Origin: an uncultured Clostridium sp.
GTDB taxonomy: Bacteria > Bacillota > Clostridia > TANB77 > CAG-508
NCBI GenBank assembly: GCA_946639585.1
Contig: CAMPBS010000002.1
Coordinates: forward strand, 16,994 to 80,993
Reading direction: 5' to 3'
DNA length: 64,000 nucleotides
Below the pieces are notes generated by a model. It did no database searches, was not told where the DNA came from, and saw only the letters and a program-made list of their open reading frames with translations. This document shows positions 2 to 57,937 of this stretch, one piece after another; positions within the stretch are counted from its first letter, which is position 1; each line of letters opens with the position of its first letter. The translations under genes and the position numbers were made by a program.

Positions 2-1693
2 AAATTTAGGAATAGCAATATGAGCCATATTTTAGCAGTGTCAGGAATGCATATTACATATATTGTGCTTGGAATTGTGCTATTTTTAAGCAAATTATCT
101 GGTAAAAAAATAGCTAAAATTTTAAGTATTATTGTATTAGTTTTTTATATTACAATAACTGGTTTTTCTCCATCTATTATACGTGCTTGTAGCACAGCAA
201 TAATAATGCTTGTTGGAGGGATAATAAATAGAAAATCAGATGTATGGACATCAATGTCTATATCTTTATTTATTATTCTAATTCACAATCCATTTTTAAT
301 AACTAATATTGGATTACAATTCTCTTATATGGGGACACTAGGAATTATTATTTTAAATAAAAATGTTATGAAAATTTTAACATCTAAAAAGAATACTGAT
401 AAACACAAAATAAGAAAGTTTAAAATACACAAAACAAAATTTAATGAAAAGTTTATTTCTAAGTTTAAGGAGATAATAGCTGTTTCAATTTCTGCGCAAA
501 TCTTTATATTACCATTAACAATATTTCATTTTAATACAATTGGTTTGTATTTTCTAATAACTAATTTACTATTAAGTTTAATCATTGGGCCTGTAATAAT
601 TTTAGGATTTCTGTTTTTAACAATGCTAATTTTAAATTTATCGATTTTAAATATTTTTGCATTTCCTATAAAATGGGGAATAAAAATTATTTTATTTATA
701 ACTCAAATAGGAAATTTTCCATATTCAAAAATCTATGTTGCAACTCCCAAAGTATTTGTATTAATAATATATTTTGTATTTGTAATGGTTCTAAATCATA
801 TTTATACTGCTTGTACGAATAAAAGTCCAACAAATTCAAATTTACGAGTTAAATATATGCTTCAGCTTTTAAAATATAACATTAGGAAATATAGCAAAAA
901 AATTATTTCATTTGTAATTCTTATAATTTTTTTATCCATTTTTGTTGTTTTATTCATTCCAAAATCCTTAAAAATCCATTTTGTAGATGTAGGCCAAGGA
1001 GATTGTTGCTTTATAGAAACACCTGGAAATAAAACCATTTTAATAGATGGTGGAGGTAGCGAATTTGGGAGTTATGATGTTGGTAAAAATACATTATTAC
1101 CATATATTTTAGACAGAGGTTATACAAAAATAGATTATATATTTATAAGTCATTTTGATACGGACCATGTGCAAGGTTTATTAACAATACTAAAGGAATT
1201 GCAAGTTGAAAATGTAATAATTGCAAAGCAAAAAGAAGAAAGTCAAAACTATAAAAAATTCATAGAAATAGTAAATTCAGGAAAATTAAAAGTTGATATT
1301 GTTAAAAAGGGGGATAGAGTAAAAATAGAAGATGATTTGTATTTTGATATTATCTGGCCCAATACTCAAAATTTAATAAATGAAAATGCTTTAAACAATA
1401 ATTCAATGATGTGCAAGTTGATCTATAAGGATTTTTCAATGGTATTTACAGGAGATATAGAAGAAATCGCTGAAAAGAAGATACTACAAGAATATAAGAA
1501 TAATTTGAGAATGCTGAATTCTACTATTTTAAAAATTGCGCATCATGGGTCAAAAACATCATCAATGCAAGAATTTCTAGAAGCGGTAAAACCTAAAATA
1601 GTTTTAATTGGCGTTGGAGAAAGTAATAAATTTGGTCATCCGAATAAGGAAGTATTAGAAAGGCTTGAATTATTGCGGTTCAAAAATTTATAG
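2..1693 (+). CDS. comEC: DNA internalization competence protein ComEC/Rec2, 5'-partial (frame open to the window edge)
   Basis: The competence domain (ILAVSGMHI) is followed by a metallo-beta-lactamase domain (HFVDVGQGDCCFIE...HFDTDH...HHGS). About 200 aa of the N-terminus lie upstream of the window. Confidence 0.8.
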   Translation, partial: KFRNSNMSHILAVSGMHITYIVLGIVLFLSKLSGKKIAKILSIIVLVFYITITGFSPSIIRACSTAIIMLVGGIINRKSDVWTSMSISLFIILIHNPFLITNIGLQFSYMGTLGIIILNKNVMKILTSKKNTDKHKIRKFKIHKTKFNEKFISKFKEIIAVSISAQIFILPLTIFHFNTIGLYFLITNLLLSLIIGPVIILGFLFLTMLILNLSILNIFAFPIKWGIKIILFITQIGNFPYSKIYVATPKVFVLIIYFVFVMVLNHIYTACTNKSPTNSNLRVKYMLQLLKYNIRKYSKKIISFVILIIFLSIFVVLFIPKSLKIHFVDVGQGDCCFIETPGNKTILIDGGGSEFGSYDVGKNTLLPYILDRGYTKIDYIFISHFDTDHVQGLLTILKELQVENVIIAKQKEESQNYKKFIEIVNSGKLKVDIVKKGDRVKIEDDLYFDIIWPNTQNLINENALNNNSMMCKLIYKDFSMVFTGDIEEIAEKKILQEYKNNLRMLNSTILKIAHHGSKTSSMQEFLEAVKPKIVLIGVGESNKFGHPNKEVLERLELLRFKNL

Positions 1694-1836
1694 AACAGAC
1701 CAAAACGGAGAAATAACATTAGTAATAAATCGAAAAGGAAAAATAAAAATAAATAAAAAGCGCAACTAAAAATAGTTGCACGAATAGTATAAAATTTGAA
1801 ATTTTGTAAATAATAACCTTGAAAGAAGGAGATTTT

Positions 1837-2448
1837 ATGGATAAACTTAACAAGGTTATTATTTCAATGCTGGTTATTTCTGCTATACTTATTGCAATAG
1901 TTGCAGCGTTGTTATTAAATCAAAAAAATAACAAAAAAGATGAGGTTGGGGAGAGTGTAAAAACCCAAATTGGAGAAAATATATATGATGAATGTACAGA
2001 TGAATATGAGGAAATGGGAGAAGATGTAATAACAACAAATACTGAGGAAGAGAAGATATCTCCAAATTGTAAAATAACTCTTATAAAATACTATAAAGGT
2101 TGTAAAGATAAAATAAATGATTATATAAGTGTTCCTAAAGAACTTGTAAATTGTACAGAAAAACAACTGCAAGGCAAATATAATGATTGGGAAATAAAAG
2201 AATTTTCAAGTAATCAAATTACATTATATAAAGAGTTTGAAGGGGAATGCGGAGAACATTATTTATTAAAAGATAAAGATGGTAAAATTTATATTTATAA
2301 AATTAATGAAAATGGTAAACAAGAAGAATATGAAAAAACTGATGTTGCAACTGATTACTTACCAGAAAAAGATAAAAGTGCTATAAAAGAAGGCTTAAAA
2401 GTTAATGGAAAAGAAAAATTAAATGAACTAATCGAAAGCTTTGAATAA
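1837..2448 (+). CDS. hypothetical membrane-anchored, Cys-containing protein
   Basis: An AGGAG RBS precedes the ATG at 1837, followed by an N-terminal TM helix. I see no recognisable domain. Confidence 0.45.
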   Translation: MDKLNKVIISMLVISAILIAIVAALLLNQKNNKKDEVGESVKTQIGENIYDECTDEYEEMGEDVITTNTEEEKISPNCKITLIKYYKGCKDKINDYISVPKELVNCTEKQLQGKYNDWEIKEFSSNQITLYKEFEGECGEHYLLKDKDGKIYIYKINENGKQEEYEKTDVATDYLPEKDKSAIKEGLKVNGKEKLNELIESFE

Positions 2449-2490
2449 AAGAAAAAATGCAAAAGATTGTACTTTTGCATTTTTTTTATT
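2449..2490. terminator. bidirectional intrinsic terminator
   Basis: A hairpin (aaaaaatgcaaaagattgtacttttgcatttttttt) sits between convergent genes. Confidence 0.6.
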
Positions 2491-3073
2491 CTTTTTTATT
2501 ATTTACTTTTGTTACATCTTTTTTCAAGTCTTTTTTATCAATAAAACCATTATGATATAATGACCAAACATACATAATTAAAGCAAATAGGGTAGATATT
2601 AATGCTAAAGCGTAGCAAATTAAATCTAGGTTTTTCCAGAAACCTTCAACATTAAATTGCCTGAATATTAATGAAAGAACTATTGCTACATAGAATAATA
2701 CTGTTGCAAGTTTGCCATACCATTTACTATAAACTACAACATCTTTTCCATATAGGAATGAAGCTCCAACTATCATTATAAATTCTTTTACTAAAACTAT
2801 AATTAAAATCCATAGTGGAATTATATTTACTAAAGCTAATGAACCTAATGTACATATTTGTGTTAACTTGTCAGCAAGGGGATCCATTAGTTTTCCAAAG
2901 TTGGAAACCAAATTGAATTTTCTTGCTATAAAACCATCAGCAACATCTGTTATTCCAGATATTGTAAAAAATACGAAGGCTAATATAAATTGTTCTGTAA
3001 ATATGAAATATACTATAAATGGTATTAATAAAAATCTTATTATTGTTAATATATTTGGTACATGTTTAAACAT
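2486..3073 (-). CDS. pgsA: CDP-diacylglycerol--glycerol-3-phosphate 3-phosphatidyltransferase
   Basis: It carries the CDP-alcohol phosphatidyltransferase motif DVADGFIARK...G...DPLADK. The AAGGAG RBS supports the ATG at 3073. Confidence 0.85.
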   Translation of the reverse strand: MFKHVPNILTIIRFLLIPFIVYFIFTEQFILAFVFFTISGITDVADGFIARKFNLVSNFGKLMDPLADKLTQICTLGSLALVNIIPLWILIIVLVKEFIMIVGASFLYGKDVVVYSKWYGKLATVLFYVAIVLSLIFRQFNVEGFWKNLDLICYALALISTLFALIMYVWSLYHNGFIDKKDLKKDVTKVNNKKE

Positions 3074-3100
3074 AATTACTCCTTTTGAGTATTCTATTTT

Positions 3101-3228
3101 AATATAATGATTTTTAATTCCTTGGTGTCGCAATCTCCTTATTTAAAAATACTAGTATGTCGATTGCTCCAGTCGCCCTGCGCTTTGCTCCGGTTGGTCG
3201 CTTACGCGGAATTCAAAATCATTATATT
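3101..3228 (+). repeat. GC-rich structured intergenic repeat element, copy 1 of 3
   Basis: The conserved core (ccttggtgtcgcaa...gctccagtcgccctgcgc...ggttggtcgcttacgcgg) is closed by a 21 bp AT-rich inverted repeat specific to this copy. Confidence 0.8.
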
Positions 3229-3233
3229 AAAAT

Positions 3234-5690
3234 TTAAACTACTCGAAATATTAATTCATTTTCTAAATCTACTACAATATTTTGACCATTTTTTAATTCT
3301 GAGCGAAGGATTTTCTCAGATATTTCATCTTCGAGATACTTTTGAATTGCTCTTCTTAATGGTCTAGCTCCAAATTTTACATTTGTGCCTTTTTCTAAAA
3401 TGTATTTTTTTGCGTTTTCTGTTACTTCCATAGTTATATTTTTTTCTTTTAAAGCTTTTTCAGTATCTTGTAACATTAAATCTACTATTTGAATTAGCTC
3501 TGGTTCTGTAAGTGAGTCAAATACAATTGTTTCATCAATTCTATTTAAGAATTCTGGTCTAAATACATCTTTTAAACTATCTAAAATTTTGTTTTTGTTT
3601 ATTATAGATTTTCCACCAAATCCGATTGAATTATTGTTTAAGTTTGATCCTGCATTTGATGTCATTATAATAATTGTATTTGAAAAATTAACTGTATTTC
3701 CCTGACTATCTGTAAGCTTGCCGTCATCAAGCACTTGTAATAAAATATTAAATACATCAGGATGAGCTTTTTCAATTTCGTCAAATAGAATTATAGAGTA
3801 AGGTTTTCTTTTTACCTTTTCAGTTAATTGACCTGCATCATCATATCCTACATAACCTGGAGGAGATCCAATTAGTTTTGCTGTTGAATGACTTTCCATA
3901 TATTCTGACATGTCAACTCTAATTATTGCATCTTCTGAACCAAACATTTCATAAGCTAATGATTTTGCAAGTTCAGTTTTTCCTACACCAGTAGGACCTA
4001 CAAATATAAATGATGGTGGTCTTTTGGTACTTTGAAGCCCAGCTCTGTTCCTTCTAATTGCTCTAGATACAGCATTTACAGCTTCTTCTTGGCCAATTAC
4101 TCTTTTATGAAGGTTAGTTTCTAAGTTTAATAATTTTTGAGTTTCAGCTTCTGTAATCTTTTTAACAGGTATTTTTGTCCAGTTTTCAATTACATTTGCT
4201 ATATCTTGAACTGTAAGGTTTTTTAATTTCATTTTATTATTTATTGAATCTATTTGTTCAATCAATTGACATTCTTTTGCCTTAAGTTCAGCAGCTTTTT
4301 GATAATCTTCTGTTGAATCAGCTGCAACAACTTCTTCTTTCTCGGCTTGTACTTTTTTTAGTTCTTGACGAAGTAATTCTAATGTGAATAAGTCTTTGTT
4401 TTCTAGATTTATTCTTGAACAAGCTTCATCCAAAATGTCGATTGCTTTATCTGGTAAAAATCTGTCATGTATATATTTTTCAGACATTATTACTGTTTGC
4501 TTAATCACATCAGATGAGATTTTTACTTTGTGATATTCTTCATAATATTTTTTTATTCCATTTAGAATACCAACAGAATCTTCAATGTTTGGCTCTTCGA
4601 CCAATACTTGTTGAAATCTTCTTTCTAAGGCTGTGTCTTTTTCAATGTATTTTCTATATTCTTTTAAAGTTGTAGTTCCAATCAATTGAATTTCACCATT
4701 AGATAAGGCGGGTTTTAAAATATTTGCGGCATTCATAGAATGTTCGCCATCTCCGGCACCTATAATATTGTGAATTTCATCTATAACTAAAATAATATTT
4801 CCGTATTCTCGACATTCATCTATAATGCCTTTCATTCTAGCTTCAAATTGACCTCTAAACTGTGTTCCGGCAATAACTGCTGTCATATCTAAAAGGTAAA
4901 CTTCTTTATTTAAAAGCTTTGCAGGTACATTTTGGTTCGCAATTTTTATTGCTAAACCTTGGGCAATTGCAGTTTTTCCAACTCCAGGTTCACCAATTAA
5001 ACAAGGATTATTTTTAGAACGTCTATTTAAGATTTGTGTAATTCTTTGAATTTCCTTATCTCTACCAATTACAATGTCTAATTCATTGTTTTTGGCTTTA
5101 TTTGTTAGGTTTGTACCATATGTATCTAAATATTTTTTCTTTTTAGATGTTTTTGTTTTTTTCTTTTCAACTTTAACTTTTTTTCTTTCTGAACTATTTG
5201 GATTTCCGTTAGCTTGGGCATGCGCTGCTCCATTATTTCCAAACATATTGAAAATTGAACCTAGGGGAATAGCTGCACCGGCAATTTTTGGAGATTCGTC
5301 ATCTTCTTCATCTTCATCCATTCCATCAGCAGAAGGACCAAAAGTGAAGGCTCCCTCAATATTTTGAATATCTTCCAAATTTATATTTTCGGCCAAATCT
5401 TTAAATATTGTTTCAAATTGTTTAGACATATCTTGCATATTTATATTATTTAAATTATTATTACCATTTGGATTAGTATTGTTTACATTTTGGTTTAAAT
5501 CAGGGTTAGTATCTTGTTTTGTACTATCAATTATGTTTTTTTGCCTGTTTAAAACATCTATTACATCAATGCCTCTTTTTTGAGCGCATTCAGCACATAA
5601 ACCTTCCATAGTGCTTTTTCCATTTTCTTGTTTTTCAAAAAAAAGTATAGCTGCATTTTTATTACAATCAGAACATAACATACTTTTCAT
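3234..5690 (-). CDS. clpE: ATP-dependent Clp protease ATP-binding subunit, ClpE-like (N-terminal zinc finger, two AAA+ modules)
   Basis: It has an N-terminal CxxC...CxxC zinc finger, two Walker A motifs (GEPGVGKT and GPTGVGKT) and an Asn-rich linker. Confidence 0.85.
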   Translation of the reverse strand: MKSMLCSDCNKNAAILFFEKQENGKSTMEGLCAECAQKRGIDVIDVLNRQKNIIDSTKQDTNPDLNQNVNNTNPNGNNNLNNINMQDMSKQFETIFKDLAENINLEDIQNIEGAFTFGPSADGMDEDEEDDESPKIAGAAIPLGSIFNMFGNNGAAHAQANGNPNSSERKKVKVEKKKTKTSKKKKYLDTYGTNLTNKAKNNELDIVIGRDKEIQRITQILNRRSKNNPCLIGEPGVGKTAIAQGLAIKIANQNVPAKLLNKEVYLLDMTAVIAGTQFRGQFEARMKGIIDECREYGNIILVIDEIHNIIGAGDGEHSMNAANILKPALSNGEIQLIGTTTLKEYRKYIEKDTALERRFQQVLVEEPNIEDSVGILNGIKKYYEEYHKVKISSDVIKQTVIMSEKYIHDRFLPDKAIDILDEACSRINLENKDLFTLELLRQELKKVQAEKEEVVAADSTEDYQKAAELKAKECQLIEQIDSINNKMKLKNLTVQDIANVIENWTKIPVKKITEAETQKLLNLETNLHKRVIGQEEAVNAVSRAIRRNRAGLQSTKRPPSFIFVGPTGVGKTELAKSLAYEMFGSEDAIIRVDMSEYMESHSTAKLIGSPPGYVGYDDAGQLTEKVKRKPYSIILFDEIEKAHPDVFNILLQVLDDGKLTDSQGNTVNFSNTIIIMTSNAGSNLNNNSIGFGGKSIINKNKILDSLKDVFRPEFLNRIDETIVFDSLTEPELIQIVDLMLQDTEKALKEKNITMEVTENAKKYILEKGTNVKFGARPLRRAIQKYLEDEISEKILRSELKNGQNIVVDLENELIFRVV

Positions 5691-5775
5691 TTCTCCTTAC
5701 TTTTATATAAAATTACAATATATATATTATCTCAAAAACCTTAATAAGTCAAGCTAAACTTTTGAAATAAGCAAT

Positions 5776-5827
5776 CTGGGGACACTTCCCAAAATGTACA
5801 ATTTTTGAACATTTTGGGAAGTGTCCC
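5776..5827. repeat. palindromic element GGGACACTTCCCAAAATG-N-CATTTTGGGAAGTGTCCC (copy A)
   Basis: It is a 20 bp perfect inverted repeat with a 12 nt spacer, lying in the clpE upstream region. Three related copies occur elsewhere in the window. Confidence 0.75.
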
Positions 5828-5928
5828 TAAAATGTTCAAAATTATTTAAATTTATATTGCAATAAAATTTGGTAAATGTTATAATATACTTAGTAAAAAA
5901 AGATTTACAAAAGAAAGAGGGCGAAAGA

Positions 5929-21403: not shown

Positions 21404-21444
21404 GCTGGCGAGCAATCTGGGGACACTTCCCAAATTGCTCGCCA
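21404..21444. repeat. hairpin carrying the CTGGGGACACTTCCCAAA core (copy C)
   Basis: The stem ctggcgagcaat / attgctcgccag encloses the conserved core. It lies downstream of the rluA-family gene. Confidence 0.65.
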
Positions 21445-21468
21445 GTCTTCTCTTCATCTTTATGTCAA

Positions 21469-30122: not shown

Positions 30123-30130
30123 AAACTTTT

Positions 30131-30190
30131 TAGGACACTCCCCAAAAACCAGGTTTTAAGTCTGAACCTTGCTTTTAGGGAGCGTCCCCC
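30131..30190. repeat. palindromic element AGGACACTCCCCAAAAA-N-TTTTAGGGAGCGTCCC (copy D)
   Basis: It is related to copy B and lies between yqfC and yqfD. Confidence 0.6.
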
Positions 30191-30228
30191 CAATGCGCCC
30201 CAATGCGTTAAAGTTAGGAGAGAAAATT

Positions 30229-37577: not shown

Positions 37578-37719
37578 TTTGATATATATTATTTTTTAAA
37601 TCCTTGGTGTCGCAACTTCCAGATTTTAAAATTGACTTATCTGTAAGTTGCTCCAGTCGCCCTGCGCTTCGCTTCGGTTGGTCGCTTACGCGGATTTTAA
37701 AAATAATATATATCAAATT
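37576..37719 (+). repeat. GC-rich structured intergenic repeat element, copy 2 of 3 (between hrcA and grpE)
   Basis: It has the same conserved core as copy 1, closed by a different, perfect 28 bp AT-rich inverted repeat. Confidence 0.8.
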
Positions 37720-51323: not shown

Positions 51324-51466
51324 CTATAAATTTATATTATTTTTTATGCCTTGGTGTCGCAACTTCCGGATTTTAAAATACTAGTCTGTAAGTTGCTCCA
51401 GTCGCCCTTCGCTACGCTACGGTTGGTCGCTTATGCGGCATTTCAAAATAATATAAATTTATATAG
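51324..51466 (+). repeat. GC-rich structured intergenic repeat element, copy 3 of 3 (between esterase gene and rlmN)
   Basis: The conserved core carries compensatory changes and is closed by a different AT-rich inverted repeat. Confidence 0.8.
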
Positions 51467-55128: not shown

Positions 55129-55188
55129 TAAACAAATCAAATGAAAATATTTAAAAAGTTAAAATGTTTAAACATTTTAACTTTTTTT
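54983..55188 (+). repeat. 206 bp direct repeat, left copy (aqpZ 3' end plus terminator)
   Basis: It is identical to 57732-57937. Confidence 0.9.
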
Positions 55189-57139: not shown

Positions 57140-57565
57140 ATGAAAAAAATTTTCTCTATGATGTTAGCATGTGGTATGGCTTCTGTTATGGCACTTAGTA
57201 ATGCTAGTGTTGTATCGTACGCTGCAAACTATAATACACCGATGGCTAATGGAGTCGTTAAGGCTGATACCTATAATAACGGCACAATAATTAATACAAC
57301 ATGGAAGACGATTGCAACATCTTCTTCTGGATTTAATTGCAATGTATATGTAAAATGTATGAATACAACGTTTGTACCGAATACATTGACAGTTTCTCCG
57401 ACAGATATTAGAATGCTTGACAGAAATGGCAATGTGGTTTGGGAAGAATGGGGGGCTGTTGCTGGATTAGGAAACAGAACTTTTTGGTGCGGAAAAAATG
57501 TTTGTAAAATCCAGGCAAGGTGTAAGGTTGGAAATGGAACTATTTATGTTCGCAGAGCAAACTAA
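57140..57565 (+). CDS. secreted Cys-rich small protein (signal peptide plus 7 Cys), possible bacteriocin/toxin-like
   Basis: A signal peptide (MKKIFSMMLACGMASVMALSNA) is followed by a Cys-rich mature region. Its G+C is somewhat higher than neighbouring sequence. Confidence 0.5.
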   Translation: MKKIFSMMLACGMASVMALSNASVVSYAANYNTPMANGVVKADTYNNGTIINTTWKTIATSSSGFNCNVYVKCMNTTFVPNTLTVSPTDIRMLDRNGNVVWEEWGAVAGLGNRTFWCGKNVCKIQARCKVGNGTIYVRRAN

Positions 57566-57731: not shown

Positions 57732-57937
57732 ATCCAGCAAGAAGCTTAGCTCCAGCAGTTATACTTGGAGGAGAAGCTTTATCACAAGTTTGGGTATTTA
57801 TAGTTGGACCACTTGTTGGTGCAGTAATTGCAGGTTTATTATGGAAATTCCTAGCAAAGAACGAAGAAGAGATATAATAAACAAATCAAATGAAAATATT
57901 TAAAAAGTTAAAATGTTTAAACATTTTAACTTTTTTT
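57732..57937 (+). repeat. 206 bp direct repeat, right copy (orphan aqpZ 3' fragment plus terminator)
   Basis: It is identical to 54983-55188. Confidence 0.9.

Follow-up and report, generated by a model that had tools for sequence, protein, structure and literature searches.

The four imperfect palindromes in intergenic regions of the 64-kb stretch of DNA analysed here (the window) are, with a probability that we put at roughly 80%, repetitive extragenic palindromes. They would be TIR units of a RAYT-like Y1 (HUH) transposase of the TIRYT/TIRtron kind, dispersed as a singlet (copy C) and as inverted, REPIN-like doublets (copies A, B, and D). An earlier note on this DNA had offered two readings of them, a site for a regulator shared by the stress genes clpE and uvrC, or a REP-like genome-wide element. 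Our results support the second reading, since dispersed copies occur in related MAGs with a placement that roughly follows availability, and go against the first.

Using the arm pattern GGGACACTYCCCAAAA with at most 3 mismatches, we found seven matches in the 64-kb window, where 0.34 were expected by chance and none of 100 shuffles reached seven. The two-arm pattern matched copies A, B, and D (0 expected). These matches bear out the four intergenic palindromes described before, and no further copy was found elsewhere in the window or in the next 10 kb of the contig. The copies, with the GGGACACTYCCCAAAA arms found by the pattern search, are as follows.

Copy A, 5771-5841: inverted doublet, REPIN-like, with left unit 5771-5801 and right unit 5803-5841; arms at 5779-5794 (plus strand) and 5812-5827 (minus strand).
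Copy B, 17603-17682: inverted doublet of the GGGACACTC(T/C)CC subfamily; arms at 17611-17626 (plus strand) and 17643-17658 (minus strand).
Copy C, 21404-21449, plus strand: single unit, REP-like singlet; arm at 21420-21435 (plus strand).
Copy D, 30124-30207: degenerate inverted doublet in the yqfC-yqfD intercistronic gap; arms at 30132-30147 (plus strand) and 30173-30188 (minus strand).

As had been described, copies A and C share their left half (a 23-nt identity, GCAATCTGGGGACACTTCCCAAA), copies B and D share AACTTTTTRGGACACTCYCCAAAA, and the spacers of A and B contain ATTTTTGAAC. Units of the A/C type carry GGGGACACTTCCC and those of the B/D type GGGACACTCYCC; arm by arm, the core reads GGGGACAC in the left arm of A and in C, while the remaining arms of A and B have AGGGACAC or TGGGACAC and that of D is degenerate. 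The cores of copy A lie at 5778-5790 on the plus strand (left unit, GGGGACACTTCCC) and at 5816-5828 on the minus strand (right unit). The right unit forms a hairpin by itself (TTTTGAACATTTT/AAAATGTTCAAAA), reading TTTTGAACATTTT-GGGAAGTGTCCCT-AAAATGTTCAAAA with the conserved core at the tip. The extra 12-bp stem reported around copy C was found at 21405-21416/21434-21445 (CTGGCGAGCAAT/ATTGCTCGCCAG), capped by the single arm, with the core GGGGACACTTCCC at 21419-21431 at its tip. The outer tail of copy B (TAAATTCC/TAAAATTCC) is reiterated at 17659-17676, and the tail repeat CCCCAATGCG of copy D occurs twice at 30187-30206. All four copies were predicted to fold strongly as single strands, with -38.7 kcal/mol for A (z -9.1), -40.7 for C (z -9.2), -24 to -30 for B, and -27.9 for D.

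The gene context given earlier was right in substance. Copy A lies between diverging neighbours, a Clp-family ATPase gene on the minus strand and an esterase-like gene on the plus strand, and is flanked by divergent promoter-like sites (minus strand 5752-5724, plus strand 5857-5885). Copy B sits between uvrC and the divergent glmS ribozyme leader (17353-17506, minus strand), which, as had been assumed, lies upstream of glmS and is canonical (83 bits). Copy C lies 9 nt past the stop codon of the RluA-family gene, and copy D separates yqfC from yqfD. A search against Rfam at the gathering score gave no match at the four sites; the only matches in the window were the glmS ribozyme and two tRNAs.

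The copies belong to a repeat family with hairpin covariation and a conserved tip. From the hairpins of the right arm of A and the singlet C, the unit was defined as a stretch of about 35 nt. In it, a word W that varies is followed by a T-run, then by the core GGGGACAC with 4 further nucleotides specific to the lineage, then by an A-run, and last by W', which is complementary to W. A single strand of the unit can form a hairpin whose tip is the conserved core, and a doublet, being two inverted units, can fold as one long hairpin or two short ones. We then analysed covariation in 50 distinct arms from the window and related genomes. The results showed that 77.5% of cells in the helix between W/T-run and A-run/W' were paired, compared to 64.0 +/- 1.3 in shuffles, with 112 double-sided changes against 54. 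The covariation score was 0.373 against 0.165 in shuffles, a value that 0 of 500 shuffles reached; kinship among copies inflates these statistics, and the slid-register control was clean (0.06-0.17). The consensus of the 50 arms was TTnnnGnnnnTTTTnGGGACACTTnCAAAAAGnnnCAT, in which neither GGGAC-C nor the T and A runs beside it vary, and no conserved GTAG or GTGG (GT[AG]G) was found at the 5' foot of the palindrome.

Mean complementarity dropped to near background about 12-18 nt outside the core, and a subset of copies caps longer, copy-specific palindromes. We considered whether every doublet lies inside such a longer palindrome, as after insertion into terminator loops, and found this to be true only of a subset (L009, L054, L088, L075, and window copy C). 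In two loci (L090 and L012), one doublet is exactly centred in another. The outer half-unit (W, T-run, GGGACAC, or its complement tail CCC, A-run, W') is tandemly reiterated beside some copies, for example as CTGTTTTTAGGGACAC three times at L116 5833-5900 and as GTCCCCAAAAGTTC twice at L012 1630-1730. Such reiteration affects about 9% of tails compared to 0.8% of control positions, in counts that contain duplicates. It may mark a point where an enzyme cuts or joins, or may reflect slippage; taken together, the nested palindromes and the reiterated tails hint at the place of cutting or joining by the enzyme.

To see where else the family occurs, 185,579 species-representative genomes were scanned once with the strict two-arm pattern; chance alone should give about 4 hits. 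The scan returned 91 eight-kilobase blocks, over half of them from five uncultured rumen or gut "Clostridia bacterium" MAGs of low G+C content, which together hold at least 54 strict doublets.

RGIG4938: at least 25 strict doublets; unit GGAAC-TTTT-GGGGACACTGAC-AAAAA-GTTTC.
RGIG6952: at least 14 strict doublets; unit GGTGC-TTTTTT-GGGACACTTAC.
RGIG8360: at least 12 strict doublets; unit GTTAAC-ATTTT-GGGACACTTTC.
RGIG2630: at least 2 strict doublets; core GGGGACACTTCCC (locus L090), a near copy of window copy A.
RGIG2387: at least 1 strict doublet.

Both the 4 bases after GGGGACAC and the preferred W are specific to the lineage. Units like those of B and D, with the word CAAGG, were found in L065 and L067; together with the near copy of A in L090, they indicate that both subfamilies of the window are common to its relatives. 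Local copy number reaches 12 in 20 kb of L095 and 8 in 20 kb of L104. The 34-39-bp hairpins of Lachnospiraceae and Eubacterium and, with exceptions given below, the other single hits of the scan are probably unrelated, sharing merely GGACACT with the family.

An identical 37-bp hairpin, GGACACTCTCAAAAGATTTCTCTTTTAGAAAGTGTCC, with identical flanks and a T-run, was seen by the same scan in many Lachnospiraceae genera (Blautia, Oribacterium, Acetitomaculum, and Lacrimispora) at L003, L014, L017-L019, L022, L023, L025-L027, L030, L031, L044-L046, L048, L049, L051, L068, L074, and L087. It has the look of a terminator from a widely transferred mobile element and is probably unrelated to the family of the window.

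The repeat forms both inverted ends of a single-locus Y1_Tnp gene in nine of nine related genomes, with matching lineage-specific cores. The loci examined were L058, L092, L095, L097, L102, L103, L104, L116, and L124. In all nine, a unit reading GGGGACAC on the gene strand lies 60-230 nt before the start codon and a reversed unit lies 12-110 nt past the stop codon, and GGGGACAC or GGGACAC is present in the flanking repeats. In L092 (GCA_017511085.1, 27.8% G+C), the bracketing repeat is TTTTGGGGACACTTCCCAAAA, which is also the arm of copies A and C in the window. The earlier note had named just such agreement with the terminal inverted repeats of a transposon as speaking against a regulator. 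In RGIG4938, the GGGGACACTGAC unit stands both at the ends of the gene and in 25 strict doublets elsewhere, and the bracketing unit also recurs nearby in the same genome in L095 and L104.

The gene was characterised in L058, a contig of RGIG4938 with many copies of the repeat, where the ORF at 1113-1886 (minus strand) encodes a 257-aa protein. A singlet precedes the gene by 94 nt, and a doublet follows it at a distance of 12 nt. The protein matched PF01797 Y1_Tnp (IS200-like) with 43 bits against a cut-off of 23. Its best NCBIfam model was the REP-associated tyrosine transposase, at 64.9 bits and thus below the 80-bit equivalog cut-off. Its sole match in PDB was 4ER8, the E. coli TnpA-REP (E 0.005), and the TnpA proteins of IS608 and ISDra2 were not matched in that search. 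At least 295 homologues with about 50% identity were found, nearly all from Clostridia MAGs and metagenomes, each on few contigs. Proteins of the family are about 253 aa long; in 10 homologues, the HxH, Y-I-H-x-N-P (Y-x3-NP), and YSSY serine motifs were invariant, and the C-terminal part of about 110 residues showed weak similarity to HTH_23 (E 0.09).

Within the 64-kb window, tblastn with the L058 protein found no Y1_Tnp gene, and none was found in the 10 kb beyond, so that the cognate enzyme of the window genome was not seen. The only match, at 57233-57361, was at chance level (E 0.38), and its ORF has no Pfam family. The window was matched to NODE_224 of ENA assembly ERZ12302818, with 100% identity over 21.8 kb. 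A TIRYT gene was also sought through shared samples, and none was recovered from this assembly.

At orthologous sites, the repeat can be found in one species and missing from another, whereas it is stable from strain to strain. Positions 5-4482 of the window are syntenic with RGIG8360 (75-90% identity); the convergent gap at 2449-2485 of the window holds a plain bidirectional terminator, while its RGIG8360 ortholog (L075) holds a full doublet inside a longer palindrome. Comparing this filled site with the empty one, we found no direct target duplication, and flanks tend toward complementary, not direct, repeats. Copies A, B, and C occur at the same sites in three other strains of the species, where only substitutions and no presence/absence polymorphism were found, which gives no sign of recent movement within the species. 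The substitutions cluster in the elements (in copy B, 4 in about 75 nt compared to 3 in about 425 nt of flank), and copy A of strain L112 carries one compensatory change from A:T to C:G. Long residence, slow turnover, and a single-locus enzyme are the pattern of REPINs, which this family resembles.

These observations also bear on whether the elements are classical MITEs, that is, deletion derivatives of a DDE-type insertion sequence that moved by cut and paste and left target-site duplications. Doublets are indeed short and non-coding with inverted ends. In L058, moreover, a gene at 1989-2843 (minus strand) for a PD-(D/E)XK protein of the Rpn family ('recombination-promoting nuclease/putative transposase') adjoins the RAYT-like gene between repeat copies. 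However, the Rpn gene stands beside the repeat in one of the nine loci only, with none found in the remaining eight; the Y1 gene is bracketed in all nine. No DDE gene bounded by the arms was found in about 0.6 Mb of related loci, and the filled and empty sites lack the direct duplication that cut and paste would leave. Singlet hairpins of the same design are common in related genomes and, in several of them, as frequent as doublets. A search of a plasmid collection gave no match to the repeat, and one of viral contigs gave only one short match, probably unrelated. We therefore regard a MITE origin as very improbable.

The repeat is extragenic and not tied to one class of intergenic region. Among 108 copies in about 0.6 Mb of related loci, 101 (about 93%) were extragenic and 7 intragenic; 15 lay at block edges, and 86 could be classified by the orientation of the neighbouring genes.

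Tandem gaps: 59 of 86 copies; 333 background gaps.
Convergent gaps: 16 of 86 copies; 53 background gaps.
Divergent gaps: 11 of 86 copies; 47 background gaps (433 in total).

The gap classes are thus used about in proportion to their availability, with no preference for promoters and a slight excess in convergent gaps.

If the sites were operators of a transcription factor co-regulating stress and repair genes, copies A and B, in the divergent promoter regions of the Clp-family gene and uvrC, would be well placed, and a palindromic site with a conserved core could suit binding by a dimer. However, both copies fall between the predicted -35 boxes of the back-to-back promoters and overlap neither of them, copy C lies at the 3' end of a gene, and copy D lies inside the yqfC-yqfD operon. 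Related genomes carry dozens of copies each, beside unrelated genes and in all intergenic classes, and divergent gaps hold no more than their share (11 of 86 against 47 of 433). The core, moreover, shifts from lineage to lineage in step with the ends of the transposase-like gene. A shared site for regulating clpE and uvrC is therefore almost certainly the wrong explanation.

We also weighed whether the copies are ordinary host hairpins, intrinsic terminators or mRNA stabilisers that have come to look alike through convergent or concerted evolution, with no mobile origin. The earlier statement that no T-run follows the palindromes holds for copy D, an intercistronic stem, and needs qualifying for A and C. 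A simple scan rates the right half of A (5803-5841, tail TTATTTAAAT) as terminator-like, and likewise copy C when read on the minus strand; on the plus strand, C is followed by a T-rich tail. Some related copies are likewise followed by a T-run (L055:7402), the L075 doublet occupies the place of a plain bidirectional terminator, and the copies at the tips of longer copy-specific palindromes could be understood in the same way. On the other hand, what is conserved is the apical core and not the stem, and termination does not need such a core. Some copies, moreover, are found between divergent promoters, which is not a place for transcripts to end, and in each lineage examined a transposase-like gene is enclosed by the identical unit. 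An origin as host hairpins is, in our view, unlikely, and the units of a RAYT-like transposase remain the preferred reading.

Among known systems, the closest description is that of Di Nocera, De Gregorio & Rocco 2013, who named RAYT-like genes with flanking inverted repeats "TIRtrons" and their proteins "TIRYTs"; many of the repeats share GGGGWSAS, and some of them make up families of moderate abundance, in which copies are single, dimeric, or grouped (PMC3733652). The core GGGGACAC fits GGGGWSAS as defined there, which places the window elements with the TIRtron/TIRYT kind, and the absence of a GT[AG]G foot indicates that they are not GTAG REPs. Quentin et al. 2018 assigned most TIRYTs to the TnpA-REP-like subclass 2.1, with long proteins, a C-terminal HTH, and Y-x3-NP, and reported no REP-like secondary structures beside subclass 2.1 genes (PMC6006769). 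Bertels et al. 2017 equated subclass 2.1 with RAYT Group 1, found in 21 bacterial classes including Clostridia, whose flanking 16-mers number about 12 in each replicon, far fewer than in Groups 2 and 3, which form REPINs (PMC5581495). TIRtron/TIRYT, TnpA-REP-like subclass 2.1, and RAYT Group 1 probably correspond to one another.

The related loci resemble this kind in having a RAYT-like Y1 HUH gene bracketed by GGGGWSAS-type inverted repeats (here GGGGACAC), which are also dispersed as single, dimeric, and grouped copies. By description, the protein would fit subclass 2.1/Group 1 in its length of about 253 aa, its Y-x3-NP motif, the serine motif after the catalytic Tyr, and the C-terminal extension with weak HTH_23 similarity. 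They differ in that published examples come mostly from Proteobacteria and Acidobacteria and ours from uncultured rumen Clostridia. Every TIR here is a clear covarying hairpin, whereas Quentin et al. saw no REP-like structures (PMC6006769). Local density is also high, at about one copy per 2 kb in L095, and inverted doublets dominate some lineages.

Two further palindromes were noted in distant phyla of high G+C content. Arms of GGGGACACTTCCCAAATTC occur in two copies in the Aminicenantes MAG PFL34 (52-56% G+C; L033 5229-5266 and L040 728-765), and arms of GGGGACACTGACAAAATAA in a Pseudomonadales MAG (L004 7560-7615). Both are consistent with the cross-phylum GGGGWSAS motif of TIRYT repeats.

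The REP/BIME/REPIN-RAYT systems of Enterobacteria and Pseudomonas, reportedly the subject of Nunvar 2010, Bertels & Rainey 2011, and Ton-Hoang 2012, share with the window family short extragenic imperfect palindromes, inverted doublets that give long hairpins, and a single-locus Y1 transposase gene flanked by repeats. Their sites, too, are constant among strains and different between species, often intergenic and next to terminators. The family described here differs in lacking GT[AG]G at the hairpin foot and in conserving the apical core and the A/T runs instead of the stem, and its enzyme would belong to another RAYT group. With IS200/IS605 elements, it shares the Y1 HUH catalytic core (PF01797), hairpin ends, and a presumed chemistry on single-stranded DNA. 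Its gene, however, appears to be single-locus in each genome and not multi-copy, its ends are inverted repeats of each other and are amplified without the gene, and its Tyr motif is Y-x3-NP (class 2), not of the class 1 type.

By analogy with the TnpA of IS200/IS605 (IS608) and with E. coli TnpA-REP, an enzyme encoded elsewhere in the window genome would bind the single-stranded hairpin form of the unit, probably at the replication fork. As in IS608 and TnpA-REP, it might then cut beside the core and copy or move singlets and doublets in trans. Going by the half-unit reiterations, the cut would be expected near GGGGAC^AC or GGGACAC^. To our knowledge, cleavage, binding, or transposition has been shown for no TIRYT. 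The window copies would be passive passengers, whose only likely local effects are those of RNA or DNA hairpins. Copies A and B may be inert spacers between back-to-back promoters, most simply tolerated insertions. Copy C is probably the terminator of the RluA-family gene or a reinforcement of it, or could stabilise the 3' end of that gene. REPs in E. coli operons affect mRNA processing or stability, and copy D, as an intercistronic stem, could by analogy do the same.

A more specific form of this reading is that the family is a true REPIN-RAYT-type system run by a Group 1/subclass 2.1 (TIRYT) enzyme, which would recognise the hairpin through its apical core GGGGACAC, with new copies entering the tips of existing hairpins. 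We propose this tentatively, at somewhat less than even odds. Entry at hairpin tips would explain the nested palindromes (L090 and L012), the half-unit reiterations (threefold in L116, and the tails of window copies B and D), and the doublets found on top of a terminator or in its place (window copy C, L009, and L075).

The analysis removes a false lead, in that the window palindromes are not the operator of a stress regulon. For uncultured rumen Firmicutes of low G+C content, it also records densely placed REP/REPIN-like elements linked with a tyrosine transposase of the TIRYT type. Work on REP-RAYT systems has, as far as we know, dealt almost entirely with Proteobacteria. In the literature, Group 1 RAYTs appear as single-copy genes largely without amplified repeats, with no REPIN populations and no hairpin ends. 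Ends with a hairpin structure and dense populations rich in doublets are somewhat more than this literature reports, and they are the modestly new part of the work. Among REP-RAYT systems, the window element would thus be a new addition to the TIRtron/TIRYT branch, with its cognate gene seen in relatives and its mobilisation suggested by analogy. The variation of 4 nt between lineages beside the invariant GGGGACAC, mirrored at the gene ends, is a natural series for how the enzyme reads its substrate. For annotation, such units explain many strong intergenic hairpins in MAGs of this kind, which should not be labelled terminators or regulatory sites by default.

Other repeats were also noticed in the window. 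A second, unrelated repeat of about 100-125 nt, relatively rich in G+C and with the consensus TCCTTGGTGTCGCAACTTCC...GTAAGTTGCTCCAGTCGCCC...GGTTGGTCGCTTACGCGGA, occurs at the following positions.

Window: 3101-3235, 37584-37711, and 51333-51460.
Related MAGs (77-91% identity): L035 5803-5929, L055 6815-6940, L090 7303-7395, L092 18170-18329, and L111 about 2680-2880.

In strain L111, an extra stretch of about 210 bp after uvrC (window about 19520-19830) contains a copy of this repeat, which is therefore polymorphic between strains; it is probably an active MITE or a small-RNA-like element. In addition, a perfect 34-bp palindrome, AAAAAGTTAAAATGTTTAAACATTTTAACTTTTT, occurs twice in the window (55153-55186 and 57902-57935) and brackets about 2.7 kb, which contains unknown ORFs and codes for DUF6442 and a small HTH protein. 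The PP-loop ATPase gene directly follows the MIP gene in strains L107 and L108, and the bracketed segment therefore looks like a strain-specific insertion.
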